DNA of 64,000 nucleotides from Candidatus Moraniibacteriota bacterium (GTDB lineage: Bacteria > Patescibacteriota > Minisyncoccia > Moranbacterales > UBA2206): contig JBAQNM010000004.1 in assembly GCA_049303795.1 (NCBI GenBank), positions 75,690 through 139,689 on the forward strand. The letters run 5' to 3'. The notes under the pieces were generated by a model. That model did not search any database. It was not told where the DNA came from and worked only from the letters and a program-made list of their open reading frames with translations. Position 1 is the stretch's first letter; the number at the start of each line of letters is the position of its first letter. This document shows, piece by piece, positions 2,883-61,595 of this stretch. Both the position numbers and the translations under genes were made by a program.

Positions 2883-4007
2883 TTAATTTCCGCAAGCAGC
2901 ATCAGCGGATGCGCCATTGACTGCAGTACCTTCTCCAAATCCTGGAGCAGGAGCAGTCGCAGAAAGACTTGTGCTACATTCTTTTGGTTCAGTTTTGAAT
3001 GCAGAGCAGATAGTTTTCAAAAGACTAGCAGAATCTCTTCCAGCCCCTTTGACCTCAACTCCATTAACAATCAAGGTTGGAGAGCCTTGAACACCATATT
3101 TAACATTATCCTCTTTATTCACATCAAAAGTTGGAAATTGTCCACCACTCCAAGTGCTTTTATCAGCATACTTCTCTGAAACCTTAAACTGTTTATCAGT
3201 TGCGCTAACACAACTAGTCAATTTTACAGCGTTCACGCCAGCTGATTTAACGCAAGCCTCTGCCTGCTTACTATCTTTCAAGAAACACTTCAAATAAGCG
3301 CTAAGTTTGGCTGGTTCATTTTTTCCAATGCAATATTGTTTTAGGTTTTCATCCAATTCTACTTTCTCATGCATTGCATAGCTGACAAATTTCATTGAAT
3401 AATTCATTTTTGCTCCTAGAGTTTCAACTACAGGAATAATCCCTTTTTGAATTTGAGTTCCATAAGGACAATAACTCATTATGAATAACTCAACTACTGG
3501 CTTATCTGTCTTGGGAATTTCTGCTTGTGGCTCAGAATTAGCAGCTACATCGCCTTCAGAATTTTTTGCTTTCTCTTCAATCACTTGAGCAATATCCATA
3601 ACACCACCTTTTCCATCTGGAATAAACTTTTTACCATCTAGCGATAAATACGAAGTATATTCTTGTTGTTTGTCACCTTCTCCAATTTTTAACATCACTT
3701 TAAACATACCATTCTCTTTTGTAACATCTGATATTTCCGCTTTTGTCCCTGGTTGCATTAAGTTATTGTTAATAAAATCCTCTACTTTTGCTTTTGCAGC
3801 AGTTGTAGTCAAATGTGTTTTACTCCAAACCATTTTATAATAGCCAAACCCTGCAACCAAAATAACCAACACAATCGCTGCTATTATTTTTGGCAGATGT
3901 TCTTTATATTTCTCACAGCAGCATTTTTTTTCATCATGCGCGCACACTTCTTTCTGCTCCGAAGTTTTAACTTCAACTTCCGGCATTTCTTTTTTTTCTG
4001 TTTCCAT
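2883..4007 (-). CDS. Membrane-anchored thioredoxin-fold (DsbA-like) protein with atypical CPYG active-site motif and N-terminal CCC cluster
   Basis: Single TM helix (IIAAIVLVILVAGFGYY). Motif FIMSYCPYGTQ matches the thioredoxin active-site position, and the cis-Pro region GSPTLIVNGVEVKG is typical of the DsbA/thioredoxin fold. N-terminal CAHDEKKCCCEKYKEH cluster. Confidence 0.55.
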   Translation of the reverse strand: METEKKEMPEVEVKTSEQKEVCAHDEKKCCCEKYKEHLPKIIAAIVLVILVAGFGYYKMVWSKTHLTTTAAKAKVEDFINNNLMQPGTKAEISDVTKENGMFKVMLKIGEGDKQQEYTSYLSLDGKKFIPDGKGGVMDIAQVIEEKAKNSEGDVAANSEPQAEIPKTDKPVVELFIMSYCPYGTQIQKGIIPVVETLGAKMNYSMKFVSYAMHEKVELDENLKQYCIGKNEPAKLSAYLKCFLKDSKQAEACVKSAGVNAVKLTSCVSATDKQFKVSEKYADKSTWSGGQFPTFDVNKEDNVKYGVQGSPTLIVNGVEVKGAGRDSASLLKTICSAFKTEPKECSTSLSATAPAPGFGEGTAVNGASADAACGN

Positions 4008-4124: not shown

Positions 4125-6371
4125 TTACCTCTCAATCCATTTACCAGAATTACATTCACAGTTCACACTTGAACAAGTCATTCCTGGACAACTACCAGCG
4201 CCTGGCTTAACTCCACAGTCTCCAGCATTACATGTTAGTGGTAAACAGACTCCAACCATCGTACCTACCGCTGGACGTGTCGCTCCGCAATTACTAGTTT
4301 GAGTAAAGGCTGTGCCCGTACAAATTGTGTTATTAGCAGGAGTCCAAGTTCTATCATTACATACATAATATTGACATTTTCTTCCGTCAGTACAACTAGA
4401 GGAATCCTCTCCAACATTTCTCCAGGATAGACTAGCTGTAGGCACATTTACATTATCATCCGTACACATAGTGCCAGCTGGAGGATTTGGCGTTCTGCAA
4501 TAACCAACTCCGGAAGGAAAATAGTATTGACATTTTCTAGCACTTGTACAATTAGAAGCCCTGCTAACCTGTATCCAATCTACGTTCGACGTTAAGCCTG
4601 CATCGTCACCTGAGCACATTACTGCTCCAGGCGGAAACAATCCAGTACAAGAATACAGCGGAGTTGGAGTAGGGGTTATGGTTGGAGTTGGCGTTGGTGT
4701 TATCGTTGGAGTCGGAGTTGGTGTAGAACAAACCTTTGTTCCAGCGCTATAAGTTCCACAATTATTAAGACAGCTGCTACCAATACAAGTATTAGCGGCA
4801 CAAACGCCATCAACAACACAAGTGCAACTACCACCACAACTAGTGCAACTAATGCCATTCCAAGTATATCCTTCGCTACAAACACGATTAGTTCCGGTAC
4901 AGGTGCCTGTTACAGTTGGATCAGCACTATTCCAAACTGAGAAATTACATGTTCTTGTTTTTGTTGAACCGGAAGTATTAAAAAATTGATGTTCAGCATC
5001 AAAAGTTCCAGTAAAAGCCCCTCCTGGATAGTTTTGAGTGTATCCAGCACTATAATTACAAACATAGCCACTACATGAAAATTCTCTACAAACAGCACTC
5101 CACATATTAGAATTTGCACCTGAAACAGCAGAATGTACTGTTTCGCCTGAATTAACTGTGTTACTATAGCCCACACAAGAAACACTAGCAGGAGGAGTAG
5201 CAGGACCAGCCCCTGAATTGACAGTCTGAGTCCCAGTGCATGTTCCAGTCACGCTTGGATTAGCACTATCCCAAACGGTATAAGTACAAGTTCTTGTTTT
5301 TGCAGAACCAGAAGTGTTATAGAATTGACTTTCCGAACCAAATGAGCCTGAAAAAGATCCTCCGGAATAATTCTGAACATACCCGGCACTATAATTACAA
5401 ACATAACTTCCACATGAAAACTCTCTGCAAACAGCGCTCCACATATTAGCATTTGCACCTGAAACAGCTGAATATACAGTGCCACCAGAGTTAACTGTAT
5501 GAGAATAACCTACACAAGAAACACCAGCTGGAGGAGTAGGTGTAACGGGACCAACTCCTGAATTGACAGTCTGCGTTCCAGTACATGTTCCAGTCAAACC
5601 AGGATTAGCGCTATCCCAAACGGTATAAGTACAAGTTCTTGTTTTTGCAGAACCAGAAGTATTATAAAATTGACTTTCTGAACCGAATGTTCCTGAAAAA
5701 GATCCTCCGGAATAATTTTGAACATACCCGGCACTATAATTACAAACATAACTTCCACATGAAAACTCTCTGCAAACAGCGCTCCACATATTAGCATTTG
5801 CACCTGAAACAGCTGAATATACAGTGCCACCAGAGCTAACTGTATGAGAATAGCCCACACAAGAAGGAATGTTGACACATACCCCACTCTGACATTGCTT
5901 ATTTGTTCCACAAGATGTTCCATTTGCAGCATTAGCCGTATATGCACAAGTATTTGATGAGCAAGTTGCGACCTTACAAACTGGAGGAGTTGCGGTGCAA
6001 TTTGAGGCCGTACAGCATCCTGTTCCAGATGCTCCTAGGAAAGTTGGTGGAGTTGCCGTAGTGGCACTTCCAAAAATTGCAGTACCATATGTTGGTGCCT
6101 GGTTGCTACGCCAACAACCGGCATCTATCCAACAAGATACGGGACTTGAAGCAGAACAAGGAATGGTTAACGACCCTCCTGTATAATATCCGGCACCAGT
6201 AGACCTGTTTGTTACTGAACAATATTTGCAACCACCGCCTGAATCACTACATGTAGTACCAGCAGAACAAGTATCTGAAGCATTAGCCATTGGGATGCCT
6301 GAGATTATTCCTGATAAAAAAAGAGCTAGGGAAAAGATAATAGAAAAGATAATTTTTTTATTCATACTCAT
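4125..6371 (-). CDS. Secreted cysteine-rich repeat protein (748 aa), cassette 1 large protein; C-terminus ...CNSGKWIER
   Basis: Sec-type signal peptide MSMNKKIIFSIIFSLALFLSGIISGIPMANA. Composition is about 10% Cys and very rich in S/T/G. Three ~115 aa tandem repeats (SCVGYSHTV...TRTCTYTVWDSANP...TGTCTGTQTVNSG). PT-rich linker TPTPTPTITPTPTPT. The internal minus ORFs at 4265-5947 are out-of-frame shadows. Confidence 0.8.
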   Translation of the reverse strand: MSMNKKIIFSIIFSLALFLSGIISGIPMANASDTCSAGTTCSDSGGGCKYCSVTNRSTGAGYYTGGSLTIPCSASSPVSCWIDAGCWRSNQAPTYGTAIFGSATTATPPTFLGASGTGCCTASNCTATPPVCKVATCSSNTCAYTANAANGTSCGTNKQCQSGVCVNIPSCVGYSHTVSSGGTVYSAVSGANANMWSAVCREFSCGSYVCNYSAGYVQNYSGGSFSGTFGSESQFYNTSGSAKTRTCTYTVWDSANPGLTGTCTGTQTVNSGVGPVTPTPPAGVSCVGYSHTVNSGGTVYSAVSGANANMWSAVCREFSCGSYVCNYSAGYVQNYSGGSFSGSFGSESQFYNTSGSAKTRTCTYTVWDSANPSVTGTCTGTQTVNSGAGPATPPASVSCVGYSNTVNSGETVHSAVSGANSNMWSAVCREFSCSGYVCNYSAGYTQNYPGGAFTGTFDAEHQFFNTSGSTKTRTCNFSVWNSADPTVTGTCTGTNRVCSEGYTWNGISCTSCGGSCTCVVDGVCAANTCIGSSCLNNCGTYSAGTKVCSTPTPTPTITPTPTPTITPTPTPLYSCTGLFPPGAVMCSGDDAGLTSNVDWIQVSRASNCTSARKCQYYFPSGVGYCRTPNPPAGTMCTDDNVNVPTASLSWRNVGEDSSSCTDGRKCQYYVCNDRTWTPANNTICTGTAFTQTSNCGATRPAVGTMVGVCLPLTCNAGDCGVKPGAGSCPGMTCSSVNCECNSGKWIER
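4857..5864. repeat. Intragenic tandem repeat, ~345 bp x 3, copies 2 and 3 near-identical at DNA level
   Basis: Repeated nucleotide blocks, e.g. ccagcactataattacaaacata...ctctgcaaacagcgctccacatattagcatttgcacctgaaacagc at ~5380-5480 and ~5725-5830. They encode the three SCVGYS...TVNSG protein repeats. Confidence 0.75.
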
Positions 6372-6966: not shown

Positions 6967-8931
6967 TCACTTCATCTGCATTTTACGCAAAGAAGAAATT
7001 TCATCACGAATAATTGCCGCTTTTTCAAATTCTAATCCTCTAGCGGCGTCTTTCATTTCTTTTTCTCTTTGTTTAATATATCCGGCAATATCCTCTAGAG
7101 TTTCTATTTGAGAAAAATCTTGTGTGATGCGTGGATTAATTTCATGATCCACAATCGATTCAATTTTTTTCTTGATTGTTTTGGGCGTGATCTTATGTTT
7201 TTTATTATATGCCATTTGCAGAGTTCTGCGACGATTTGTTTCGGAAATAGCACGTTCCATTGATCCAGTCATTTGATCAGCATAAAGAATCACTCGCCCA
7301 CTCACATTACGCGCAGCGCGACCAATAGTTTGAATGAGTGAAGTTTCACTGCGAAGAAAGCCTTCCTTATCAGCGTCAAGAATTAAAACTAACGCGACTT
7401 CCGGAAGATCTAATCCTTCACGCAAAAGATTAACTCCAACCAAAACGTCAAATTCTCCGCGCCTTAATTTTTCCAAAATACGCACACGATCCAAGGTGTC
7501 CACTCCACTATGCAAATATTCAGCCTTCACTCCGCTTTCTTTTAGAAAATCAGATAAATCTTCTGCCATTTTCTTGGTTAGTGTTGTTACAAGCACACGA
7601 TTTTTTTTCTGAATCGTTTTCTCTATTTCCTTGGCAGCATCCTTGACTTGACCCTTGGCCGGCTTAATTATTAACTCCGGATCAATTAATCCTGTTGGTC
7701 GAATAACCTGTTCGGCCATATCTTCTTTTTTATTCTTCAATGCTTCATATTTTCCTGGCGTAGCAGAAACAAAAATAGCTTGCTTGATTTTTTTCTCAAA
7801 CTCCAAAAATTTAAGCGGACGATTATCAAAGGCACTAGGCAGACGAAAACCATTATTGATTAAATTTTCCTTACGAGATCGATCGCCATTATACATTCCA
7901 TTAAGCTGAGAAATTGTCACGTGCGATTCGTCAATCACAGTTAAAAAATCTTTAGGAAAATAATCAATCAAAGTATATGGTGCTTCGCCAGTTTTTCGTC
8001 CAGTTAAATATAGTGAATAATTCTCGATTCCATTGCAATAACCAATTTCGCGCATCATTTCAAGATCTTGTCTTGTTCTGCGCCAAATTCTTTCTGCTTC
8101 CAGAATTTTCCCTGCCTCTCGAAAAAATTTCACTTGCTGCTCCAATTCTTTTTCAATTTCTAATAGCGCTTCTCCCATGATTGCTTCCGGCACAACAAAA
8201 TGTTTCGCCGGATAGATAAGGGTTCTTTCTAAATTTGCCAGTTTTTCTCCAGTTATAAAATCATATTCAAAAATCTTCACAATTTTTCCATTTGCTATTT
8301 CTATCCGCGTAACTATCTCTCGTGCCGGTGGCATAATTTCCAGAGTCTCGCCAGTCAGACGAAATTTTCCGCGTGCCAAAATATCACTGCGCGAATATTG
8401 CATATCTACCAGTTTTCTGGCAATTTCATCACGATTAATTTGTTTTTTCAGTTCCAGTTCAAGCATTGTATCACGATAATAATCCGGCGAACCTAAACCA
8501 TAGATGCAAGAAACAGAAGCACAAATAATCACATCCTGTCGACTCATCAATCCCGCTGTTGCGGCATGACGCAAACGATCAATCTCATCATTGATCTGTG
8601 ATTCTTTTTCAATATAGGTATCCGTTGAGGCAATATAGGCTTCGGGTTGATAATAATCATAATAACTAACAAAATATTCCACCGCACTCTTGGGGAAAAA
8701 AGTACGAAACTCTTGCGCCAATTGTGCGGCTAGAGTTTTATTTGGCGCAATCACTAAAGTTGGTTTTTGCGTCTTTTCAATCACGTTTGCAATTGTGAAA
8801 GTTTTTCCCGATCCGGTCACACCTAAAAGCGTCTGGTATTTTTTTCCAGCTTTTAGCCCTCGCGTCAACTTCTTAACTGCTTGAGGCTGATCTCCAGCTA
8901 ATTTATATTTTGTATTTAATTTAAACTTCAT
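6967..8931 (-). CDS. uvrB: Excinuclease ABC subunit B (UvrB)
   Basis: MKFKLNTKYKLAGDQPQAVKKL...GVTGSGKTFTIANVIEK plus helicase motifs. Likely start is the ATG at 8931; the ORF-track extension to 8997 lacks homology. Confidence 0.9.
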   Translation of the reverse strand: MKFKLNTKYKLAGDQPQAVKKLTRGLKAGKKYQTLLGVTGSGKTFTIANVIEKTQKPTLVIAPNKTLAAQLAQEFRTFFPKSAVEYFVSYYDYYQPEAYIASTDTYIEKESQINDEIDRLRHAATAGLMSRQDVIICASVSCIYGLGSPDYYRDTMLELELKKQINRDEIARKLVDMQYSRSDILARGKFRLTGETLEIMPPAREIVTRIEIANGKIVKIFEYDFITGEKLANLERTLIYPAKHFVVPEAIMGEALLEIEKELEQQVKFFREAGKILEAERIWRRTRQDLEMMREIGYCNGIENYSLYLTGRKTGEAPYTLIDYFPKDFLTVIDESHVTISQLNGMYNGDRSRKENLINNGFRLPSAFDNRPLKFLEFEKKIKQAIFVSATPGKYEALKNKKEDMAEQVIRPTGLIDPELIIKPAKGQVKDAAKEIEKTIQKKNRVLVTTLTKKMAEDLSDFLKESGVKAEYLHSGVDTLDRVRILEKLRRGEFDVLVGVNLLREGLDLPEVALVLILDADKEGFLRSETSLIQTIGRAARNVSGRVILYADQMTGSMERAISETNRRRTLQMAYNKKHKITPKTIKKKIESIVDHEINPRITQDFSQIETLEDIAGYIKQREKEMKDAARGLEFEKAAIIRDEISSLRKMQMK

Positions 8932-8949
8932 AAGACCTTCGCTTGTGGC

Positions 8950-8996
8950 TGACCCGCCTCGACTCGCGGAGACGCTCGTCGACGCGAGGCGGGTCA
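8950..8996. other. GC-rich perfect inverted repeat (12 bp stem) in uvrB/manC intergenic region
   Basis: tgacccgcctcg (8950-8961) ... cgaggcgggtca (8985-8996) with a partly palindromic loop (cgtcgacg). Stands out in an AT-rich genome. No U-tract follows on the minus strand. Confidence 0.5.
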
Positions 8997-9053
8997 CCTT
9001 CCGGTTTAAATTTTGAATTGATTTTGAAATTATTTTCAGACATTACATAAAAT

Positions 9054-10133
9054 CTACAAATATTTGCCACCTCTCTCCTTAAGTTCCATCACCGTTTTTT
9101 TCACATCTTGTGATCGAGATTTAGGGCAAATTAAAAGCGCGTCATCAGTATCAATAATCACTAAATCATCAATACCAATTGTCGCAATTAACTTATCATC
9201 TCTTCCATAAATAATACACCCGGAAGTGTCAATATTCAATCTCTCTCCACGCACTAAATTTCTACGCTCATCTGTTTTGGTTAACATATTTTCATGAAGC
9301 GTATCCCAGGCCCCAATATCTTTCCATTCAAATTCTCCTTGAATAATCAGCACATCAGTCGGATCCATCTTTTCCGCCATGGCATAATCAACAGAAATTT
9401 TCTCCATAGAAAGATAAACTTTTTTGATCTCTGCTTCCTCATTTCCCTTCTTCATGAGAATTGCAATTTTTTTTAATTTAGAAGATAATTCTGGAGCATA
9501 TTTTTCATACGCCTCCAAAAATTTCCTCGGAGTCCACATGTAATAATTGGCATGCCAGAGATAATTACCATTTTCAATATACTGTTTCGCAGTTGCAAAA
9601 TCCGGCTTTTCTTTGTGTGATAAAAATTCATAAAATTCCACACCGTTTTTTTCAAACTTTTTAGCACCAATCTTAGTATAACCGAGAGCAGTATTGGGAT
9701 TAGTTGGATAAATTGAAATGTCCAGCATTTTGCCAGTTTCTTTAATTACGGCTTCCGCCTCTCGAATAGAGTTGATAAAGCGATCATTTCTGCCAATATA
9801 ATGATCAGAAGGAATAAAAGCCATTGGCTCATCGGCATCAAGTAGGCCCAAAAAAGTTGCGGCATAACCCATCGCTGGCCCAGTATCGCGCCTGCCTGGT
9901 TCAATAATAATATTTTTCATTGGAAAATCCGGCACCAATTCACGCACCTGTACTAATAACTCGCTAGTTGTAGCGATATATATTTTTTCGCTTGGAAAAT
10001 CCTTGAAGCGCTCGAGAGTTTCCTCGAACATCGTTTTATCAGAAATTAATTTACAAAATTGCTTTGGCTTATCAGACCTACTCATTGGCCAAAGTCGTGA
10101 ACCTCCACCACCAGCTAGAATTACAATGCGCAT
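9054..10133 (-). CDS. Mannose-1-phosphate guanylyltransferase-like nucleotidyltransferase (ManC/CpsB N-terminal domain type)
   Basis: MRIVILAGGGGSRLWPMSRSDKPKQF sugar-nucleotidyltransferase signature. No C-terminal cupin domain. Confidence 0.75.
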   Translation of the reverse strand: MRIVILAGGGGSRLWPMSRSDKPKQFCKLISDKTMFEETLERFKDFPSEKIYIATTSELLVQVRELVPDFPMKNIIIEPGRRDTGPAMGYAATFLGLLDADEPMAFIPSDHYIGRNDRFINSIREAEAVIKETGKMLDISIYPTNPNTALGYTKIGAKKFEKNGVEFYEFLSHKEKPDFATAKQYIENGNYLWHANYYMWTPRKFLEAYEKYAPELSSKLKKIAILMKKGNEEAEIKKVYLSMEKISVDYAMAEKMDPTDVLIIQGEFEWKDIGAWDTLHENMLTKTDERRNLVRGERLNIDTSGCIIYGRDDKLIATIGIDDLVIIDTDDALLICPKSRSQDVKKTVMELKERGGKYL

Positions 10134-10231
10134 ATGGTTTTTAATTTAAAAATTTTAAACAAACCCCCTATTCCATTATTAAACCACATTGCCAAAAAAA
10201 AGAATAGTAGCTAATTTTATATTCTTAAATT

Positions 10232-10247
10232 TGGCTTTTAAAAGCCA
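10232..10247. promoter_or_regulatory. 16 bp perfect palindrome TGGCTTTTAAAAGCCA between divergent genes
   Basis: Seen directly in the divergent promoter region between the manC-like gene (minus) and secG (plus). Confidence 0.3.
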
Positions 10248-10276
10248 TAAATTACTAAAACAAGCCTCATTCTTGC

Positions 10277-10305
10277 TTGACTAAAGAATTTCCTCATGCT
10301 AATCT
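10277..10305 (+). promoter_or_regulatory. Candidate sigma70-type promoter for secG (TTGACT - 17 nt - TAATCT)
   Basis: TTGACT at 10277-10282, a 17 nt spacer, and TAATCT at 10300-10305, about 28 nt upstream of the secG ATG. Confidence 0.35.
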
Positions 10306-10332
10306 TTCAAGGTAACTAAAAGACAATAAATT

Positions 10333-10563
10333 ATGCTAAAAATAGTAAATGTTTTTGAAATTGTAATCGCTATCTTGCTCGCCATATCAATTCTTCTTCA
10401 AAACCGAGGAGCCGGACTATCTGGTACCTTTGGTGGTGGCTTCGAAGGTTATCACACTAAACGTGGTTTTGAAAAGTTTCTAGTCTATTTTTCTATTGTG
10501 CTATCTGCGGCATTTATTATTTTGGCCATAATTAATTTGATTTTGACTAATAAATTAAATTAA
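10333..10563 (+). CDS. secG: Preprotein translocase subunit SecG
   Basis: 76 aa, two TM helices, central LLQNRGAGLSGTFGGG signature. Confidence 0.8.
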   Translation: MLKIVNVFEIVIAILLAISILLQNRGAGLSGTFGGGFEGYHTKRGFEKFLVYFSIVLSAAFIILAIINLILTNKLN

Positions 10564-10615: not shown

Positions 10616-12274
10616 ATGAGATTGTATCGAGTTACAAGCCTCAAAGAAAAATTCCTGTTCTGTTTTTTGATACTTTTTTTTATTTCATCTCTTAGCTACT
10701 GGCTAGTCTCTTCTTATTACTCCAAAACTGAATCAATCGCTAATTTCGGAGGTGAATATATCGAAGGAAATATTGGCCAACCAGCACATATTAATCCCGT
10801 TCTATCGCTTTCTAATGATGTTGACTCCGATCTCAGCCTTATTATCTATAATGGGCTTCTTAAATATAACGATAAAGGTGCATTAATTAATGACTTAACA
10901 GAAAGTTATGAGATTAATGAGGATAAAACTGTCTACACTTTTCATTTGAAAAAAAATGTAACTTGGCATGATGGAGAGAAATTAACTGCTGATGATGTAT
11001 TTTTCACTTTCAATTTAATCTCCGATCCGGCTTATAAAAGCCCCTTGCGATCAATTTGGCAAGGTGTCAGCGCTAATATTGTTGATGAATACACAATTTC
11101 TTTCAAAACCAGTCCATATGTTGGATTCCTTAATAATGCTACTTTTGGAATCATGCCCAAGCATATTTGGGAACCTGTTAAGCCAGAAAATTTTGCCTTA
11201 ACAGAACTGAACCTGGAACCAATTGGAACGGGCCCTTTTAAATATACCTCCTTTCAAAAAGATTCTAAAGGTAATATTTTGTCATATAAGCTAGTTGCCA
11301 ATCCTAATTATTTTTATGGCAAGCCTTATCTTTCAAAAATTACCTTCAATTTCTACACTGAAGAAAGTGCTCTTTTGGATGCTTATAACCGCAAAGAAAT
11401 AATGGGCATTAATAGTGTGTCCTCTCAAAACATCTCTACAATAAAAAATCAAAAAAACACCTTTGTGCACGAATTAAATATTCCCAGATATTTTGCTGTT
11501 TTTATTAATCAAATAAAAAGTGTCCCACTGGCAGATGATAAGGTGCGAGAAGCTCTAAATTATGCTACTAACCGAGAAGAATTAATTAATCTTTTATTAG
11601 ATGGAAAGGGTACACCGGTCTATTCACCAATCCTTCCTGGCATGCTCGGTTATAGCCCTGATTTAGGTAAGGTCAATTATGATTCAGAAAAAGCCAAAAA
11701 ACTTCTAGATGAGGCTGGTTGGAAAACATCCGGAGATGGTATCAGAGTTAAAGATGATAAATTACTGGAAATAAATCTAGTTACCACAAATTGGGATGAA
11801 TTTAACAAGCTAGCTGAAATTCTAAAAGCACAATGGGAAAAAGTTGGCGTAAAAGTCAATATCAATAGCCCAACTGTTTCTGATGTTCAACAGAACTATA
11901 TTCGCCCAAGAGAATATGAAGCGCTTCTTTTTGGACAAAATATTGGTGCTGATCCAGACCCCTATTCTTTTTGGCATTTTAGCCAGGGAAAAGATCCTGG
12001 GCTCAACCTAGCTATTTTTGGTGATGATACAAGTGATAAACTAATTGAAGCTGGCCGCATGGAATTCGATCCTGAAAAAAGGGCTCAGAATTATGTGGAT
12101 TTTCAGAATATCTTAATTAAAGAAATACCAGCAATTTTTCTTTGCAGTCCAAAATATATTTATCCAGTTAATAAATCCATACAAGGCATGACCACGGAAA
12201 ATATTGCTTCTCCTGCCAAACGTTTTTCTAATATTGAAAAATGGTATATCAAAACCAAAAGAATTTGGAAATGA
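10616..12274 (+). CDS. ABC transporter substrate-binding protein, family 5 (peptide/nickel/oligosaccharide type), orphan
   Basis: N-terminal anchor helix, then SBP_bac_5-like region LIIYNGLLKYNDKGALINDLTESYEINEDKTVYTFHLKKNVTWHDGEKLTADDV. No permease or ATPase genes adjacent. Confidence 0.75.
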   Translation: MRLYRVTSLKEKFLFCFLILFFISSLSYWLVSSYYSKTESIANFGGEYIEGNIGQPAHINPVLSLSNDVDSDLSLIIYNGLLKYNDKGALINDLTESYEINEDKTVYTFHLKKNVTWHDGEKLTADDVFFTFNLISDPAYKSPLRSIWQGVSANIVDEYTISFKTSPYVGFLNNATFGIMPKHIWEPVKPENFALTELNLEPIGTGPFKYTSFQKDSKGNILSYKLVANPNYFYGKPYLSKITFNFYTEESALLDAYNRKEIMGINSVSSQNISTIKNQKNTFVHELNIPRYFAVFINQIKSVPLADDKVREALNYATNREELINLLLDGKGTPVYSPILPGMLGYSPDLGKVNYDSEKAKKLLDEAGWKTSGDGIRVKDDKLLEINLVTTNWDEFNKLAEILKAQWEKVGVKVNINSPTVSDVQQNYIRPREYEALLFGQNIGADPDPYSFWHFSQGKDPGLNLAIFGDDTSDKLIEAGRMEFDPEKRAQNYVDFQNILIKEIPAIFLCSPKYIYPVNKSIQGMTTENIASPAKRFSNIEKWYIKTKRIWK

Positions 12275-12359
12275 TACCAATCTAGAGCTTCTCTTTTTTG
12301 CACATATCTTTAATAAAAAATATTGTTTCTCTAATAATTTATATTAAAAAAATAAACAT

Positions 12360-12971
12360 ATGCAAAATAACTTTGATTTTGTACCTAAACATTATGCTGC
12401 ACGCGAACAAGCAGAGATAAAAGATGTGCTTATGAATCCAAATGGCACTGGACCAGCGATTCATTACTATATGATCCGTGGCGGAGTTGATCAAAAAAAT
12501 ATTACCGTTTGGGAGCCAGGTACTATTTCGGGAGAATATATAAAAACCTATGGACACTATCACGTCGGTGAATTAGAAGAAGATTATGAAATTCTTTTTG
12601 GGGAAGGCGTCGCACTTTTGCAAAAATTATCTATAGATAAAAACGGAAATATGCTTGCTAATTCAGTAGAAGAATTCCGAGCAATAATAGTTAAGCCAGG
12701 AGATAAAATTCATATGGCGCCTAGCTATGGCCACTTATTAGCCAACACTGGTTCAACTTATTTTGTCACCGTCGATAACAGTCCAGTTAATTTTGAAGAA
12801 GGAAAAAATTCAGCTGATTTTCCCGGACATGCCGATTATCAACTTGTCAAAGAAATGCATGGATTTGCTTATTATGTAGTTGAACATAAAGGAAAACCAG
12901 TGCTCAAAAAAAATCCAAACTATAAAGAAATACTAAAAGAAGATTTGGGTGGACTGCCAGTTATTGAATAA
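12360..12971 (+). CDS. Cupin-type glucose-6-phosphate isomerase (cPGI)
   Basis: TVWEPGTISGEYIKTYGHYHVGELEEDYEILFGEGVALLQ and GDKIHMAPSYGHLLANTG parallel the two metal-binding cupin motifs of archaeal-type PGI (TKGHFH...E... and PP.W.H...N). Confidence 0.65.
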   Translation: MQNNFDFVPKHYAAREQAEIKDVLMNPNGTGPAIHYYMIRGGVDQKNITVWEPGTISGEYIKTYGHYHVGELEEDYEILFGEGVALLQKLSIDKNGNMLANSVEEFRAIIVKPGDKIHMAPSYGHLLANTGSTYFVTVDNSPVNFEEGKNSADFPGHADYQLVKEMHGFAYYVVEHKGKPVLKKNPNYKEILKEDLGGLPVIE

Positions 12972-12986
12972 TGAAAAAATAAAAAA

Positions 12987-13361
12987 ATGTCTATTATCGA
13001 GAGTGAAAAAATATGTGAACGTCCCTGGGGAAAATTTGAAATACTCGTAACTGCCGAAAAATACCAAGTTAAAAGATTAACTATTTATCCCAATGGGATA
13101 TTAAGCCTTCAGTCACACAAACATCGATCAGAACATTGGATTATAGTGTGTGGCACGGCAAAAGTAACTAATGGTGAAAATGTAATTATTTTCAATCAAA
13201 ACGAAAGTACTTTCATTCCATTAGGAAGTATTCACCGATTAGAAAATCCGGGAAAACAAAATCTAGAGGTAATCGAAGTGCAAACCGGTGACTATTTGGG
13301 GGAGGATGACATTATACGCTATGAAGATATTTATAATCGAAAAACTGACAATTCTTTATAG
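12987..13361 (+). CDS. Stand-alone cupin domain of type II mannose-6-phosphate isomerase
   Basis: RPWGKFEIL...VKRLTIYPNGILSLQSHKHRSEHWIIVCGTAKV matches the C-terminal cupin of bifunctional ManC/PMI enzymes. Confidence 0.65.
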   Translation: MSIIESEKICERPWGKFEILVTAEKYQVKRLTIYPNGILSLQSHKHRSEHWIIVCGTAKVTNGENVIIFNQNESTFIPLGSIHRLENPGKQNLEVIEVQTGDYLGEDDIIRYEDIYNRKTDNSL

Positions 13362-13420
13362 ACTAGTCCAATGGAAGATTTGAAGAAAAAATTAGCCTAG
13401 CTATTTAAACTAAAAAATCC

Positions 13421-13456
13421 AAAAAAACAGTCCCGAGTAATTGGGACTGTTTTTTA
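13421..13456. terminator. Bidirectional Rho-independent terminator
   Basis: A-tract, then stem acagtccc (13427-13434) paired with gggactgt (13443-13450), then a T-tract. Lies between convergent genes. Confidence 0.6.
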
Positions 13457-13496
13457 ATTTATCATATAAGCAATTGCGATTTTTTAAAAAGCCATG

Positions 13497-14010
13497 TTAT
13501 CTTTCTTCCCAATTTCCAGGACTACAAACATTCGTTCTACAACTCGAACTACACGTTTCTGGACAACCACCATTATTTACCCCATTGTCACAATCCTCAA
13601 ATAAACCCTTTATTCCGTCACCACAAACATCACAGTTATTAAACGTGCAACCTGCGCTACAAGTTTTTGGACAAACTCCATTGTTAGCACCTTTATCACA
13701 TAATTCACCTAATTCTAAAATTCCATTACCACACACGGAACAAGTGTTGCTCGTGCAGCTTGTGCTACAAATCTTTGGACAAACTCCATTGTTAGCTCCG
13801 TTATCACAAGTTTCAACTCCTTCCAAAACTCCATTACCACAAGTGGCTCCACCACAAGTGTTACTTGTACAAGTTGCGCTACAAGTCTTTGGACAAACTC
13901 CATTGTTGGCACCATCGTCACAAATTTCAGAGCCCTCTATAATCCCATTGCCACAAGTAACGCTACTGCAATCTTCTGTTCCAGCGGTATATCCACATCC
14001 ATTCCAACAA
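13497..14010. repeat. Four tandem ~37 aa Cys-rich repeats (CGNG...CDxGxNNGxCPxxCS)
   Basis: Visible in the translation of the 3' end of the 13497-15605 gene. The Pro-rich + strand ORF 13441-14037 is the antisense frame of these repeats. Confidence 0.7.
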
Positions 14011-15605
14011 TCAAAACCAAGGCAAGCATTGCAATAAAAAGGAGTGCAACCACCACAACCATCACAACTTCTAACAGTAACAGCCCCACTGCAAGAACCG
14101 ATTACTGATGGATTAAGAGTATTCCAAACTTTAAAATTACAACTTCTCGTTTGATCATCTCCGGAATTATTATAATATAATGCTGTAGCGTCAAGACTCT
14201 GTTCTATTGGATATGTTAGACTGTTATAAAAATAAGCTGGTGAATCATATGTACATACTCGATCAGTACATTCAAACTTATTGCAGGTATATTTTATTCT
14301 GTTAGCATTCCAAGCAGACACCGAGGCATCAGCAATTTCTCCTGAGTTAACAATACTATCATTACTATCATAAGCACAAGTCGGGCCATCACCTATTTGA
14401 GGAGGCTCGTCTCCGCTTCTGACTGAAACTCCACCGCCACATGTGGCTGTTTTATTATTGAAAGTATTTTTAACAGTAATTGTACAACTTCTTGTTTTTA
14501 AACTGCCTGAGGTATTATAGTAATAAAATGTAGCGCTATTATCTGCAAGAGGTAATGTATATACGGGAGAATTGTAATCATAGTTATCTTCATAATAACA
14601 CGTACCTGATGTGCAATTGAAATCAGAGCAAGTCCAACTAACTTCTTGGGCATTACTGGTGGTCAAATGTGTTTGAGCTGTCTTTCCTGAATCAATAGTT
14701 CCATCAGTTGAATAAACACAACTTGGACCATCAGGTGGAGGCGGTGTCACTACTGCGCCACTATGAACATTCACATTTCCATTGCAAGTTCTCTTCACGC
14801 TACTATTGGCACTACTCCAAACTGTGAATTTACAATTTCTTGATAAATCTTTGCCTGAATCATTATTAAATATAATCGAATTAGTTATAGTTCCATCAGA
14901 TGGTATATCAGTATTACCAGAATATGAATAGCTTTCATCATCATTGCAGGTTCCACCTGAGCACCTAAAGTTTGAGCAAACCCAACTAACCTTATCAGCG
15001 TGTGTGGCTGAAAACATTACGGTAATTGCAGCTCCCGAATTAGTGTCATATGAATAATCATTACAACTTGGCTCTGGGAAAGAATCTGCACACTTACCTT
15101 CTGCACAAACTTTTCCCGAACCACAAGCATGAATATCCTCACTTAATTTTTTATCTGCTGAGCAATAATACTCTTTTACTGTATTAGTATCAACACAATT
15201 ATCCCAAGCAGAGTCTTTATACGGATTAAATTCTACATATCCCTGTGTTGAATAATCCTTGCTATCAGAATCTACACAAATCATATCACATCTACCTTCA
15301 CTTGCTTTACAATAAGCATCCTCATAAAAACTGGTACAACTGTTAACGCTCTGATCAAGAGCACCTCCGGTACAAAAATATTCTGTCAAGTTGTTTCCAA
15401 CACAATTATCCCAAGCATCGTCAGCCTTAGTAGGCGTTCCATTGAAATCAGTATTACCTTGAATGAATGGCTTATTTCCACCATCAGAGTCAGTGCAAAC
15501 TGCTTTTGCTGATCCAACAAGAAAAAAAACAGATACGATCAGGACAAGGAAACTAGCAATTAATTTTTTATTCATATTCATAAATTTATTTTTTATCAAG
15601 AACAA
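13497..15605 (-). CDS. Secreted cysteine-rich repeat protein (702 aa), cassette 2 large protein; C-terminus ...CSPGNWEER
   Basis: Signal peptide (MNKKLIASFLVLIVSVFFLVGSAKA). Repeats of the C.FTVW.sanp..gtC.G type are shared with the 748 aa protein. The C-terminal region has four CGNG..E.GE.CD.GANNGVCPKTCS repeats resembling the Myxococcus cysteine-rich repeat. Confidence 0.8.
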   Translation of the reverse strand: MFLIKNKFMNMNKKLIASFLVLIVSVFFLVGSAKAVCTDSDGGNKPFIQGNTDFNGTPTKADDAWDNCVGNNLTEYFCTGGALDQSVNSCTSFYEDAYCKASEGRCDMICVDSDSKDYSTQGYVEFNPYKDSAWDNCVDTNTVKEYYCSADKKLSEDIHACGSGKVCAEGKCADSFPEPSCNDYSYDTNSGAAITVMFSATHADKVSWVCSNFRCSGGTCNDDESYSYSGNTDIPSDGTITNSIIFNNDSGKDLSRNCKFTVWSSANSSVKRTCNGNVNVHSGAVVTPPPPDGPSCVYSTDGTIDSGKTAQTHLTTSNAQEVSWTCSDFNCTSGTCYYEDNYDYNSPVYTLPLADNSATFYYYNTSGSLKTRSCTITVKNTFNNKTATCGGGVSVRSGDEPPQIGDGPTCAYDSNDSIVNSGEIADASVSAWNANRIKYTCNKFECTDRVCTYDSPAYFYNSLTYPIEQSLDATALYYNNSGDDQTRSCNFKVWNTLNPSVIGSCSGAVTVRSCDGCGGCTPFYCNACLGFDCWNGCGYTAGTEDCSSVTCGNGIIEGSEICDDGANNGVCPKTCSATCTSNTCGGATCGNGVLEGVETCDNGANNGVCPKICSTSCTSNTCSVCGNGILELGELCDKGANNGVCPKTCSAGCTFNNCDVCGDGIKGLFEDCDNGVNNGGCPETCSSSCRTNVCSPGNWEER

Positions 15606-16032
15606 TGACTATACTTAACGCGTTTTTGGTTTGTTTATCATATTCAATCATAATTGTTTGCCCAATCTTCAAATCAGAAAGTCTGCCATCTTTTTTATCA
15701 GCATCCAAGCCAACAGTAACAGGGGTTACTGGTGAAACAAGACTTATATTATAAGATTCTATTTCTCTTGATATTTTCATCTCATCTCCAATCTTAATCT
15801 CTTTCGGTGGCCCAAGAACATCTATGGATTGCTCATGCATTTTTCTTAACTCACCCGTAATTATTTCTGTTCCAACGTCTACTGTTTTCTCTTGAATAAT
15901 TTTTTGATTTTCTTCTGTATATTTTTTTGAAACCAAAAAAGAAGCAAAATAAATAATTGTAATAAATATAATTATTCCAATCAAGATAACTAAGCTTTTT
16001 TTGTTTCTTTCTGTTTTTTTCTGTTTTTTCAT
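15586..16032 (-). CDS. Small membrane-anchored protein (148 aa), cassette 2 partner
   Basis: Lys-rich N-terminus plus TM helix. Motif LVSPVTPVTVGL...LSDLKIGQTIMIEY is shared with the 6373-6816 protein. Its 3' end overlaps the start of the large gene. Confidence 0.7.
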   Translation of the reverse strand: MKKQKKTERNKKSLVILIGIIIFITIIYFASFLVSKKYTEENQKIIQEKTVDVGTEIITGELRKMHEQSIDVLGPPKEIKIGDEMKISREIESYNISLVSPVTPVTVGLDADKKDGRLSDLKIGQTIMIEYDKQTKNALSIVIVLDKK

Positions 16033-16106
16033 TTTTTTGTTTTAAATTTTATTACTTAGAACGCAAAAGAAAAAATTAAGTTTTCTCTTTCATGTTTATA
16101 TTAATA

Positions 16107-16112
16107 TTATAC
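16107..16112 (-). promoter_or_regulatory. Candidate -10 (TATAAT, minus strand) upstream of cassette 2
   Basis: Revcomp of 16104-16115 is GGGGTATAATAT, about 75 nt upstream of the ATG at 16032. Confidence 0.3.
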
Positions 16113-16168
16113 CCCATTTCAAACAAATCAACAATACTAGCTTTAAAAAACTGTGGATAAATATATTT

Positions 16169-16212
16169 AAAAAAAACAGAAGTATGCTAATCATTCATAC
16201 TTCTGTTTTGCG
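16169..16212. terminator. Bidirectional Rho-independent terminator after cassette 3 large gene
   Basis: A-tract, then 10 bp stem cagaagtatg (16177-16186) paired with catacttctg (16196-16205), then a T-tract. Confidence 0.65.
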
Positions 16213-16240
16213 TTTTATTTAATTTCAAACCGAAAGAAAA

Positions 16241-17473
16241 TCATCTCTCCTCCCAATTTCCAGAATTGCAAGAACCACAATGTGTCGTCTGAGCAGCACA
16301 ATTAGCAATTTCGGCAGGCGAGCACACACCTGCTCCGCAAGTTTTAATACATCCTTTTGGTTTGTCTCCACAACCACACACTGCATCTACACAAGTTGCT
16401 GGCATGCATGGAGGTGGTGTTACGGTTGGTGTTGGAGTTGCAGATGGAGAAACAATTATTGTTCGACTATCACAATTTGACCAAACATTATTACTGTCTT
16501 TAACTTTGAAACCAACCACCCAGGTTCCTGGAGAAAAAATAATACTACTAGTGTTAGGAACGCTAGTGCCAATATATAAAGCAGTTCCGGTACAACTCCC
16601 ATTTTTATACCATCTATAGCCTGTAATAGTATCTCCGGAATCAACATCATTTCCTGTTCCGGTAAAATTAAAAGAAAGGGTGCTAATTGTTTTTGGATTG
16701 TCCAAGGAATCTGGAATTGTTATCAACGCTGTAGGTGCAGTATTGCTGCTACTTACACTAGTCACCTCACTCATCATATTCGAACAAGCAGCTCCATATG
16801 ATGCTGGGTCATTCAAATTAGTATTAGTCGAATCAATGCAAAACCACCCAACTGGGCATTTCGTCTCGCTAACAGGAGAAAGTAAACCACTAGGCTCAAT
16901 TCCACTTTGCCATACAGACCACCAAATTACACCATCAGAAGAAATATGCTTTTCACAAGAATCATAAATTGTTTCACGAGCACCATCAGAATTGACTCCG
17001 GTAGCTTTTCCACCTTGATTTGGATCATTACCGAAATCATTATCAGTTCCTGTCACACATAATCCTGAGCTATTCATATATTGATAAGCTTCAGGGCAAC
17101 AATCACTAAAAGTCCCTTCCTCACCTAAGCAATCTGAAACACTGAGACATTTATTCTCTCCATTACAAACTTTTCCAGATGGACAATCAGAGTCAACACA
17201 ACATTCAACGGTTGCTTGATATCCCTTATTGTTATACCAACTTCCAGCACAAGAAGAGCTCCATGCCACAGAATCACAAGTTGCTCCTGGAGCTGTGCAC
17301 CAGGCATCGCATTTTTGAATTTTTTTATTAACACAGGCAGACTCACTACTAACATATGAATCATCACCATCCCCTTGTATCAACGGATTTGCCAATACAT
17401 AATCAATACTAATGAAAAAAACAAAGGACAAAAGCGAAAAAATAACACCTGCAATTTTCATTTTTATTTTCAT
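16241..17473 (-). CDS. Secreted cysteine-rich protein (410 aa), cassette 3 large protein; C-terminus ...CNSGNWEER
   Basis: Signal peptide MKIKMKIAGVIFSLLSFVFFISIDYVLA. Cys-rich N-terminal half, an Ig-like middle region and a PT linker. The C-terminal Cys cluster ends in SGNWEER. Confidence 0.75.
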   Translation of the reverse strand: MKIKMKIAGVIFSLLSFVFFISIDYVLANPLIQGDGDDSYVSSESACVNKKIQKCDAWCTAPGATCDSVAWSSSCAGSWYNNKGYQATVECCVDSDCPSGKVCNGENKCLSVSDCLGEEGTFSDCCPEAYQYMNSSGLCVTGTDNDFGNDPNQGGKATGVNSDGARETIYDSCEKHISSDGVIWWSVWQSGIEPSGLLSPVSETKCPVGWFCIDSTNTNLNDPASYGAACSNMMSEVTSVSSSNTAPTALITIPDSLDNPKTISTLSFNFTGTGNDVDSGDTITGYRWYKNGSCTGTALYIGTSVPNTSSIIFSPGTWVVGFKVKDSNNVWSNCDSRTIIVSPSATPTPTVTPPPCMPATCVDAVCGCGDKPKGCIKTCGAGVCSPAEIANCAAQTTHCGSCNSGNWEER

Positions 17474-17573
17474 TTTATTTTTTTATCAACTATTTGTATT
17501 TATATTGTTAAATTTTTACAAAATATTTGATAGTTTTTATTTATTTTAAATTGACTAACAAAAAAATTATTTA

Positions 17574-18005
17574 TTATTCTTGTCCTACAATCACTTCCAA
17601 AACTTCATTATTTTGTTTATTGTAAGTTATTTTAACATCTTTATCCATAGAAAGCTGAAATAATCCGATTTCTATTTTTTGAACATCTTCATTATTTTCT
17701 ACTTCCTGAAAAAAATTAGCTCCTTCGGAGGGTACAATCAAATCTAATTCCTGACCATCAACGCTAACCACCTTAAGTATAGAGATGTCAATTGAAACGA
17801 TTTTGGCTAAAATATTTTCCATTTCAATGCTGGACTGATTATTCTCTTCTTGATTTGATTGAAATTGAGTTTGAATAGAATTATTTTTTGAATCACCAAA
17901 TAAATGTTGCCTTTTACTAATAACCAATACCGCTAAGATAAAGGCCAAAACACCCACTATTATGATTAAACTTGCTCGAGTATTTTTTTTATTTTTTTGT
18001 TTCAT
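17574..18005 (-). CDS. Small membrane-anchored protein (143 aa), cassette 3 partner
   Basis: Same architecture as 6373-6816 and 15586-16032 (Lys-rich N-terminus, one TM, ~100 aa C-terminal domain) and the same position upstream of a Cys-rich gene. Sequence is more diverged. Confidence 0.55.
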   Translation of the reverse strand: MKQKNKKNTRASLIIIVGVLAFILAVLVISKRQHLFGDSKNNSIQTQFQSNQEENNQSSIEMENILAKIVSIDISILKVVSVDGQELDLIVPSEGANFFQEVENNEDVQKIEIGLFQLSMDKDVKITYNKQNNEVLEVIVGQE

Positions 18006-18024
18006 TTATTTATTTAAAATTTTA

Positions 18025-19008
18025 TTAGACTATAAAACCAACCTTATTTTTTATTTCTTTTAATTTCTTTCTAGCTAGTGGCTGGACCTTTTCAGCCCCA
18101 ACGCGAAGAATTTCCAAAACCTTTTTGTCGCTAAGTTCGGACATTCTTTTTTGAAATGGCACGAGAAAATTAATAATCACTTCTGCTAATTCCTTTTTGA
18201 AATCAGCATAACCTTTCCCGATATAAAGATTTTCCACTTCTTGTGGTGTTTTGTTATCTAGCAAACTATAGATATTGATCAAATTTTTGAGCGCTGGTTT
18301 TTTATCTCCATAAACTATTTCCGAGCCACTGTCTGTAATAGCTCTTTTGATTTTTTTACGAATCGCCTCCGCATCATCCGTAAGCGCGATATAGCTATAT
18401 TCACTTTTAGCAGATTTGGACATCTTCTTGCCCAATTCATCCAATGCCATAATATTTTCGCTTTCTTTTTTGGTGTAGTCCCCAGGAATAGTAAATGTTT
18501 CACCAAATTTTTTATTAAATCTTTCTGCAATTTTTCTGGTCAGCTCAATGTGTTGCTTTTGATCTTTGCCGACTGGAACAATCTGAGTATCATAAAGAAG
18601 AATATCGGCCGCCATAAGCACCGGATAATTCATGAGACCAGCATCGATTCCTGTTTTACTTTCTTTGCCAGATTTATCCTTAAACTGAGTCATTCTTTCA
18701 AGCTCAGGAATCTTAACAATCGTATTGAGAATCCACATAAGTTCCGCATGTTCAGGAACATGCGATTGAATAAAAATGGCACAGTTATTTGGATCAATTC
18801 CAGCTGCCAAATAAATTTTGGCAATTTCAATTGTGCGTCGACGCAAAACAGCCGGATCCTGGGGGACTGTGATGGCGTGCATATCAACAACGCAAAAAAT
18901 TGAATCATACTCATTTTGAAGTTTAACCCAGTTTTGAATAGCACCTAAATAGTTTCCGATATGGAGATTGCCTGATGGTTGAATGCCTGAAAAAATACGT
19001 TTTTTCAT
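18025..19008 (-). CDS. trpS: Tryptophanyl-tRNA synthetase
   Basis: Class I HIGH-type motif (GIQPSGNLHIGNYLG) and KMSKS motif. Confidence 0.9.
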   Translation of the reverse strand: MKKRIFSGIQPSGNLHIGNYLGAIQNWVKLQNEYDSIFCVVDMHAITVPQDPAVLRRRTIEIAKIYLAAGIDPNNCAIFIQSHVPEHAELMWILNTIVKIPELERMTQFKDKSGKESKTGIDAGLMNYPVLMAADILLYDTQIVPVGKDQKQHIELTRKIAERFNKKFGETFTIPGDYTKKESENIMALDELGKKMSKSAKSEYSYIALTDDAEAIRKKIKRAITDSGSEIVYGDKKPALKNLINIYSLLDNKTPQEVENLYIGKGYADFKKELAEVIINFLVPFQKRMSELSDKKVLEILRVGAEKVQPLARKKLKEIKNKVGFIV

Positions 19009-19090
19009 ATTATTACTTAACTGTTTAAATTTTTTAAACTATCAATTCTTTTTCATAATTAAATCATAGCAAAAAAATGAAGAACCAGCA

Positions 19091-19120
19091 ACAAAAAACC
19101 AACCACTTTTCATGGCTGGT
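19091..19120 (-). terminator. Rho-independent terminator after rnj
   Basis: On the minus transcript, CCAGCCA-loop-UGGUUGG (one G-U wobble) is followed by UUUUUUG. Confidence 0.45.
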
Positions 19121-19137
19121 TTTTTATTGAGACTATT

Positions 19138-20943: not shown

Positions 20944-21334
20944 AGATTTTATTAGATTGCTCCTTTTTATTTTTTATAGAGCAATTTCATTATTTAATTT
21001 ATAGATTTAGCCAAGTTACTTTGGCAAATTATTGATTATGATATATTTCTGCTTGATATAACCAAGCAAAACTAAAAAGTTTAAATTACGATAAAAAAGA
21101 ATAGTGCCTAGAAGTGATTAGCACTAAATGACCGAAAGGGGTAAATAAGTTCAAGTGTCTATCTTCTCGTAAGAATTATATCATACTATTATACATGAAT
21201 CCAGAATAATGTCAACTCGAGTTAGAAAACAGGCTTTTTTGTCAATAATTACACAAAATAAAAAAAGGTGCTTGAGAATTCTGCTGGTTCGCAGTTTCTC
21301 AAACACCCTTATTGTTCGTGCGCTACAGATCTTT

Positions 21335-22084
21335 TTAGAATGCGCAGCTAATCCCGGCGTGTGTGACGTACAAATCTTCTCGGTAGTCAGTATCATCCAT
21401 GAAAGTCGGAAAATACATGTCGATTCCGACATTAGCCGATAATTTTTCGGAGAGCTGGTAGGTCATCCGCGGGGCAACCTTAATGATTAAGGCTTTTTCT
21501 GCACCGTAACCGCCCATATCAACATCAAGCTTTGTTTTCATATTAACTTTAAGCTTATCGGTGATATTGCAAGCCAGATCGACCATGGGGATAAGATAAA
21601 GTCCGGTCGTTTGACTGTTATGAACATCGTCGACAGGAAAATTATACTCAACCCTGAATCCTGGTATCGCCGTAATGATTCCAAGTGAAAATGCCTTGGA
21701 AACCTCGGCATTGACCTGGAGCACATCGTTATTGGTTGATGTTAACGTTCCTGGCGACATAAGATAATAGGCGCCACCGATTGTCCAGAAGTTTTTTGAG
21801 TACCATACGCTCAGATCCACTTCGGTCGCCGCGTTATCACCAACGTTGTTAAAGTTTGTCGGTAACGACGCCCAGACCGACCCGCCAAGGCCATTCTCAA
21901 AATTTTTGCCGGCTTCCATCTGAATCACAGGTTTGTCGTAAACCTCAAACCCTGATCCCAGCACATACGATCCAAGACCGTCAACAACCAGATATTCCCC
22001 TGATGCATACGCAACAGAATAACCCCCAGCCATTAAAGCAACCGCCGCTACCGTCATCAATACTGCAAGAATCAGTTTTTTCAT
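21335..22084 (-). CDS. Putative outer-membrane-type beta-barrel protein (porin/OMP-like), GC-anomalous gene
   Basis: Signal peptide MKKLILAVLMTVAAVALMAGGYSVAYA. Alternating hydrophobic beta-strand pattern and C-terminal ...GISCAF (terminal Phe). Strong SD (AGAGAGGGAAATCA) before the ATG at 22084. Local GC is about 47% against ~33% in the flanks. Confidence 0.5.
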   Translation of the reverse strand: MKKLILAVLMTVAAVALMAGGYSVAYASGEYLVVDGLGSYVLGSGFEVYDKPVIQMEAGKNFENGLGGSVWASLPTNFNNVGDNAATEVDLSVWYSKNFWTIGGAYYLMSPGTLTSTNNDVLQVNAEVSKAFSLGIITAIPGFRVEYNFPVDDVHNSQTTGLYLIPMVDLACNITDKLKVNMKTKLDVDMGGYGAEKALIIKVAPRMTYQLSEKLSANVGIDMYFPTFMDDTDYREDLYVTHAGISCAF

Positions 22085-27310: not shown

Positions 27311-27321
27311 GAAAATTAATC

Positions 27322-37402: not shown

Positions 37403-37412
37403 AATTGCCTCC

Positions 37413-38018: not shown

Positions 38019-38051
38019 GTTCTGTCTCCCTGTGTGATATGTTTACATTGT

Positions 38052-39338: not shown

Positions 39339-39344
39339 CCTCCA

Positions 39345-42432: not shown

Positions 42433-42511
42433 GTCAGTTCATCCTTTCTCTGTAAAAATGGGCAGGCTTTTTGGGCCTGCCCGGTTTTGGTTGATTTGTT
42501 GAAGCCGGTTG

Positions 42512-61565: not shown

Positions 61566-61595
61566 AAGTTTTATTTTCCCCTTCCATTGTAACAC

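Follow-up and report, generated by a model that had tools for sequence, protein, structure and literature searches.

Three genes in a genome of Candidatus Moraniibacteriota encode large cysteine-rich proteins with almost the same nine residues at the extreme C-terminus. The question is what this common end does. It could be a recognition tag for processing, attachment or secretion, or it could cap a disulfide knot as part of the structure; both possibilities were raised in a sequence-only reading of the locus. The window analysed here is a stretch of 64 kb, and the three genes, denoted P1, P2 and P3, lie on its minus strand.

Three proteins with a common end

P1 (4125..6371, minus strand) is a secreted protein of 748 aa with 62 cysteines, identical to P0032. 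It consists of a signal peptide, three Cys-rich repeats of about 118 aa, a PT linker, small Cys domains and the tail, and ends in ...CECNSGKWIER. P2 (ORF 13497-15605, minus strand; NCBI start near 15575; about 692 aa counted from 15581) is a secreted Cys-rich protein whose C-terminal part is formed by four repeats CGNG..E..CD.G.NNG.CP.TCS..C followed by the tail, ...NVCSPGNWEER. It is 100% identical to P0002, found in Candidatus Moraniibacteriota MAGs including GCA_049296135.1. P3 (16241..17473, minus strand) is a secreted Cys-rich protein of 410 aa ending in ...GSCNSGNWEER; its AF2 model has a pLDDT of 36. The N-termini of all three, read directly from the sequences, contain Lys-rich, hydrophobic, signal-peptide-like segments, and all three proteins are very Cys-rich.

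Translation of the three minus-strand ORFs and a six-frame regex search confirmed the ends CNSGKWIER, CSPGNWEER and CNSGNWEER. The tail codons occupy positions 4128..4154, 13500..13526 and 16244..16270 of the minus strand, within a few bases of those given earlier. They are followed immediately by the stop codons TAA (4125-4127), TAA (13497-13499) and TGA (16241-16243), with no TM helix or basic tail, in agreement with the sequence-only reading. The pattern G[NK]W[EI]ER has three matches in the whole 64 kb, each abutting the stop codon of P1, P2 or P3.

The sequences preceding the tails had been described as different, and indeed they are. P1 and P2 are paralogous over the first ~550 residues (32% identity, E 5e-55) and unrelated in the C-terminal ~200 residues. 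P3 has no significant similarity to either protein; aligned locally, it matches each of them best in the tail. When the last ~130 nt of the three genes and 100 nt downstream are aligned, the likeness is confined to the tail codons, and the flanks cannot be aligned. The tail codons vary synonymously (GAA GAA / GAG GAG; GGT AAA / GGA AAT), as do the stops (TAA / TAA / TGA). The synonymous differences and the non-aligning DNA on both sides exclude recent gene conversion of the window tails.

The bodies of P1 and P2 have features of their own. The three units of P1 (CVGYSHTVxSGGTVYSAVSGANANMWSAVCREFSC...; window 4900-5950) are near-identical tandem repeats. The contig end of L003 falls inside the P1 gene (the last called gene, 14276-14920, is cut there) and L004 stops before it; therefore these repeats may break short-read assemblies. 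The N-terminal ~150 aa of P2 (window 15200-15575), a CTDSDGG...DNC...L.EYYC domain, match DPANN proteins annotated as Kazal-type inhibitors (Micrarchaeota, Bilamarchaeum, Ainarchaeum; E ~1e-18, covering 20-37% of the query). In the search for P2 homologues these matches are limited to the N-terminal domain and none has the tail. This surface domain appears to be common to CPR bacteria and DPANN archaea. Antisense to the P2 repeats, an ORF of 198 aa at 13441-14037 (plus strand) would encode a repetitive product rich in Pro, Leu and Gln; it almost certainly arises as an artefact from those repeats on the opposite strand.

The terminal motif among relatives

The DNA pattern corresponding to C-x-x-G-N-W-E-E-R-stop has two matches in GTDB genomes (one per species) and five in JGI metagenome contigs. 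All seven lie in short ORFs (11-78 codons) of non-coding appearance and without Cys enrichment, and their number is close to the chance expectation. The search for P3 homologues produced a single database relative, 92% identical and with the same tail. Since the pattern scans are at chance level and P3 has a single relative, the nonapeptide as written is nearly private to the lineage of the window.

A relaxed form of the motif is distributed differently. A full HMMER search of 1.84 billion cluster representatives yielded 122 relatives of P1, mostly via small repeated Cys domains. W-x-E-x(1-4) ends 22 of them, versus 0.25 expected from the frequency of W-x-E in the same proteins; this count and those of gene pairing below are subject to ascertainment bias, as all related loci were reached by homology to P1 or to its partner gene. 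In nine further relatives W is replaced by Y, M or F, for instance ...YKEVAP and ...GRMIETRP. Under a broad definition (in a protein with a signal peptide, an aromatic residue or Met, any residue and then Glu, with the C-terminus 1-5 residues further on), the tail is present in all three window proteins and in 32 of the 122 relatives.

The dominant form among the relatives is [T/N]-W-[K/R/Q]-E-[V/I]-x-P-COOH. Alignment of 37 tails at W yields G(-2) N(-1) W(0) [QIKR](+1) E(+2) V(+3) A(+4) P(+5), followed by the end of the protein. Glu at +2 is present in 37/37 tails and Pro at +5 in 26/37; eight of the 37, and the three window tails, have no Pro. The residue preceding W differs among the tails (N, R, S, T, E, K, D or G). 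The window tails end after position +3; they are a shortened local variant of the wider signature G-N-W-[QKRI]-E-[VI]-x-P-COOH. Tails of the window type recur in P0038 (CNSGNWIEK), P0048 (CNSGNWRETGE) and P0068 (CSSGNWVED), and a bridging form is found in L016 (CNSGNWQEVSE). Judging by these alignments, the conserved core is W-x-E near the free C-terminus, with Cys and Gly-Asn as subtype features. The nonapeptide proposed earlier was therefore too narrow as a definition of the motif; what is conserved at the terminus is the relaxed W-x-E core, most commonly as W-[KRQ]-E-[VI]-x-P-COOH. Similarly, the motif had been expected in homologues from other genomes: the strict form has only chance-level matches there, whereas the relaxed form is present.

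The motif W.E[VI].P occurs 15 times in the P1 relatives, each time within 0-2 residues of the C-terminus, with no internal copy. The spacing between the last Cys and W varies from 1 to 261 residues among the tail-bearing relatives. Depending on the relative, the tail is preceded by Cys knots, Pro/Ser/Thr linkers (e.g. ...PPGSPKPPSGGSWGEIKP) or Ig-like domains, and is independent of the preceding domain. In 13 relatives without the tail, the same position is occupied by an LPXTG-like motif with a helix, or by a C-terminal TM anchor. The core W-x-E is retained in proteins of different architectures with less than 50% identity; those with taxon names come from Moraniibacteriota, the Parcubacteria group and the Patescibacteria group. 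The tail is a short linear motif that is autonomous, confined strictly to the terminus and under purifying selection; its carriers are Sec-exported Patescibacteria proteins of varied architecture.

A repeat of about 35 aa, W-x-P-x-x-S-T-V-C-x-G-x-x-F-T-Q-T-x-x-C-G-x-x-R-x-x-x-G-T-K, was also observed in this protein set, in up to 11 copies per protein. It is carried by P0040, P0044, P0053, P0056, P0097, P0098 and P0080, and by P1 at residues ~671-708 (window ~4250-4360). Scans that included three carriers (P1, P0098, P0048) gave no Pfam or NCBIfam match to this repeat.

Genes adjacent to the tail proteins

All three window genes are preceded on the same strand by an ORF of about 145 aa with a single N-terminal TM helix. 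The partner of P1 (6373..6816, minus strand; 147 aa) has an N-terminal TM helix and an OB-fold domain, and ends 1-7 nt before the P1 start. The partner of P2 (15586..16032, minus strand; 148 aa) is 39% identical to it, and its AF2 model consists of a TM helix and an OB-fold barrel. The partner of P3 (17574..18005, minus strand; 143 aa) is a divergent member of the same family, 22% identical to the partner of P1. Two of the three partner ORFs end no more than about 10 nt from the downstream start codon.

The pairing recurs elsewhere. In two loci found via partner homology, the partner homologue adjoins proteins ending in ...CTWREVTP (L011) and ...STNWQEVNP (L014). Other loci were reached independently through P1 relatives. 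L015 contains a partner fragment followed by P0038. In L017, a partner, P0033 and two further partners are followed by a PKD protein. L019 contains P0043 with a partner alongside, in L020 two partners flank two tail proteins, and L022 has three successive pairs of a partner and a tail protein, all with tails ...GGSWGEIKP. A profile built from the partners confirms the partner assignments in these loci. It detects no partner in L016, L018 or L021, and thus the pairing is not universal. Usually, however, tail-protein genes sit beside a small gene encoding an N-terminally anchored OB-fold protein.

An 892-aa protein ending in ...CTWRESAP (L012 7373-10051; L011 8617-10440) has, in L012, paired hydrophobic segments between a beta-rich N-terminal half and a Cys-rich C-terminal half. 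Its counterpart in L011 is split into ORFs 7762-8463 and 8617-10440, which could be due to gene fusion, frameshift or an assembly difference.

The sequence-only reading had looked to a peptidase or transferase as the gene co-occurring with the motif. A co-occurring gene does exist, but it encodes a small membrane-anchored OB-fold protein, which suggests docking more than processing. No conserved peptidase or transferase was found beside the tail-protein genes in ten loci, and no sortase, peptidase or pilus cluster in the rest of the 64-kb window.

Just downstream of P1 lies a gene encoding a membrane-anchored thioredoxin-like protein of 374 aa with a FIMSYCPYG motif (2883..4007, minus strand). 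The window copy has no Pfam hit. The gene is syntenic in L015, L017 and L020, where the precomputed Pfam assignment is GILT. It is likely to encode a disulfide oxidoreductase serving the Cys-rich proteins, and as such belongs to the context, outside the tag itself. The recurrence of this neighbour is consistent with oxidative folding outside the cytoplasm.

Two loci contain pilus genes. In L016 (4371-21153), the genes for two adjoining tail proteins of about 1100 aa (...CNSGNWQEVSE and ...CNSGNWRETGE) immediately precede a complete type IV pilus cluster comprising PilM, two T2SSE ATPases, T2SSF, N_methyl pilins and an A24 prepilin peptidase, with no OB-fold partner. This arrangement may reflect a link between tail proteins and pili. 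In L018 the pilus genes are 6-10 kb from the tail protein, P0128. Downstream of P0128 there is a cluster of the His-Xaa-Ser type (11913-21815) with an HxsD-like gene, several radical SAM genes and a gene for an 86-aa peptide ending in ...SHGSHGSHGSHASHGSHDSHGSHGQW.

Possible roles of the tail

The reading we favour, with slightly less than even confidence, is that the window tails are short-form (W-x-E-R-COOH) copies of a C-terminal motif of Patescibacteria/Parcubacteria for non-covalent surface retention or docking, and that the OB-fold partner is a candidate receptor. The motif and the gene adjacency suggest a docking role for the tail and binding of the tail by the partner. The tail proteins would be exported by Sec via their signal peptides and would undergo oxidative folding; one of the nearby genes is GILT/DsbA-like. 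The exposed tail would then be recognised through Trp, Glu and the nearby free carboxylate, its likeliest role being to retain or dock the protein non-covalently on the cell surface. The putative receptor would be the N-terminally membrane-anchored OB-fold protein, encoded immediately beside most tail-protein genes and usually tightly coupled to them. We prefer docking because the tail occupies the anchor site of the relatives, no TM helix follows it, and the tail-protein genes are tightly coupled to that of a membrane-anchored OB-fold protein. A bolder version is possible but doubtful: the W-x-E tail and the OB-fold protein would form a previously undescribed, Patescibacteria-specific anchoring or display system, in which a peptide of 4-9 residues docks large adhesin-like proteins on a dedicated membrane stalk, replacing sortase-type covalent anchoring in ultra-small episymbionts such as these.

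Alternatively, the tail could be a covalent sorting or processing signal, with a peptidase or transpeptidase removing the W-x-E end and fixing the protein to the wall, an S-layer or a pilus. This would agree with the strictly terminal position of the tail at the site of LPXTG or TM signals in relatives, and with the pilus genes next to the tail proteins of L016 and at some distance in L018. However, there is no TM helix to hold the substrate at the membrane, and to our knowledge every known sortase, exosortase or rhombosortase signal needs one. Moreover, a peptidase or transferase is not a conserved neighbour in the ten loci, and as the residue before W varies, there is no Asn-specific cleavage site. 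We consider a covalent signal unlikely. Somewhat less likely still is a structural role, the tail closing a small disulfide-rich fold as its last strand or cap, or being the truncated first strand of another repeat unit. The P2 tail C-S-P-G-N-W-E does resemble the preceding repeat starts C-G-N-G-I-L-E, in several relatives the tail directly follows the last ...G-T-K-x-C of the ~35-aa repeat, whose units start with W-x-P, and in L022 a C-terminal module of about 40 aa is common to three paralogues. On the other hand, the tail is also found after Pro/Ser/Thr linkers and Ig-like domains, at widely differing distances from the last Cys; position +2 is invariably E in the tail but P in the repeat start; and in P0080 the stretch between the last Cys and W is nine non-repeat residues long. 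The linker and Ig contexts, together with the invariant E versus the repeat P, led us to downgrade the tail as a truncated Myxo-type repeat. Of the two initial possibilities, a tag is favoured by the strictly terminal position after unrelated regions and linkers, up to 261 residues past the last Cys, and a disulfide-knot cap is disfavoured.

Two further explanations carry less weight. The tail could be a relic of shared ancestry among paralogues with no function of its own, since the exact nonapeptide is confined to this lineage and P1 and P2 are paralogues. But the peptide is unchanged despite synonymous changes while its flanks do not align, P3 is not homologous to P1 or P2 outside the tail, and the core persists in diverged proteins of different architecture. 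Such terminal conservation across families makes a relic improbable. Finally, the tail might act on translation, ...E-V-x-Pro-stop slowing termination and thereby coupling export with translation or regulating the downstream gene. A C-terminal Pro before the stop codon impairs termination in E. coli, and Pro is frequent at +5. However, the invariant residues are W and E rather than P, the downstream genes vary, and eight of the aligned tails have no Pro. Nor do the window tails, and for them this explanation fails. Overall we regard it as very improbable.

The docking reading can be compared with known systems. In the three window proteins and ten tail-bearing relatives, scans at E<=0.1 with Pfam (2025) and NCBIfam (release 20.0) gave no model that covers the tail. 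The separation from LPXTG, PEP-CTERM, MYXO-CTERM and GlyGly-CTERM signals made in the sequence-only reading holds, as no helix follows and there is no NCBIfam hit. In particular, the LPXTG sequence is absent and the stop comes right after W-x-E-R; for PEP-CTERM, PGF-CTERM, GlyGly-CTERM and MYXO-CTERM, there are no NCBIfam/TIGRFAM hits at E<=0.1 in the same 3 + 10 proteins, and no helix or basic cluster. The WxL domain (CscB/CscC) is not matched either: these 3 + 10 proteins have no C-terminal Pfam family, and +2 is E, not L, in 37/37 tails. The T9SS Por_Secre_tail, a C-terminal beta-sandwich of about 80 aa, gave no Pfam or NCBIfam hit. The Myxococcus Cys-rich repeat models (TIGR02232 / TIGR04201) concern the protein body: the TIGR04201 score of P3 is 16 bits, short of the cutoff of 25 bits, and P2 has no hit, though four CGNG..E.GE.CD-type repeats are visible by eye.

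Like the tripartite signals (LPXTG/sortase, PEP-CTERM/exosortase, PGF-CTERM, GlyGly-CTERM, MYXO-CTERM), the tail is at the end of secreted multidomain proteins, where relatives carry LPXTG-like or TM ends. Unlike them, it has no hydrophobic helix or basic cluster, and no dedicated sorting-enzyme gene is seen nearby. Very short terminal tags are known in other settings. The C-terminal tip of SSB is bound by partner proteins and OB folds, and the Y-x-F-COOH end of OMPs is read by BamA and the DegS PDZ domain. The tail is similarly very short and strictly terminal, combines an aromatic or hydrophobic feature with an acidic one, and by our hypothesis would be read by a separate protein once synthesised or exported. 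However, the sequence, cell compartment and organisms differ, and no homology is implied.

The closest published parallel is provided by the Csc clusters of Firmicutes. WxL-domain proteins of these clusters carry two W-x-L motifs within a C-terminal domain of 130-190 aa and have no TM anchor (Siezen et al. 2006, PMC1534035). The clusters include the small membrane-anchored CscA, and WxL proteins were proposed to bind CscA or the wall non-covalently (PMC1534035). In both cases Sec-secreted surface proteins of variable architecture have a C-terminal Trp signature, and the cluster encodes a small membrane-anchored protein. In contrast to WxL proteins, the tail is only 6-9 residues long with W-x-E, and the partner is an N-terminally anchored OB fold rather than DUF916 with a C-terminal anchor. 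Because the features defining WxL membership are absent, the parallel would be one of function only. Apart from this WxL background, a literature search found no description of the W-x-E tail. It is thus apparently undescribed, within the known kind of C-terminal surface-protein tags.

CPR bacteria (Patescibacteria) are believed to spend their lives attached to other cells, and their large Cys-rich surface proteins are leading candidates for binding the host; the tail may bear on how the cell holds these proteins. Such extracellular proteins, with a signal peptide, weak likeness to Myxococcus Cys-rich repeats and a proposed role in attachment, have been described in CPR bacteria (Anantharaman et al. 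2016, PMC4736985). P1, P2 and P3 belong to the same class; the C-terminal motif and the paired small membrane protein are absent from that paper. With a simple, searchable C-terminal signature, one could list the surface proteins encoded in thousands of uncultured genomes, along with a candidate receptor gene, and the tail with the ~100-residue ectodomain of the partner makes a concrete binding hypothesis. Should the tail be only structural, it would be a useful annotation marker and little more.

Elsewhere in the window, a bacterial tmRNA gene was identified at 26887-27312 (plus strand; Rfam 154 bits), with the ARAGORN tag peptide ANLLTKARTAFANAFTVNFATALA. The regions 35795-43978 and 52875-61595 (minus strand) contain several large genes in succession that are annotated poorly or not at all: DUF6638, an AAA ATPase, a 1497-aa SNF2 helicase-methyltransferase fusion, ORFs of 598, 488 and 392 aa with no Pfam hits, and a 1021-aa ORF with no hits. 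This run could be a defence or mobile region.
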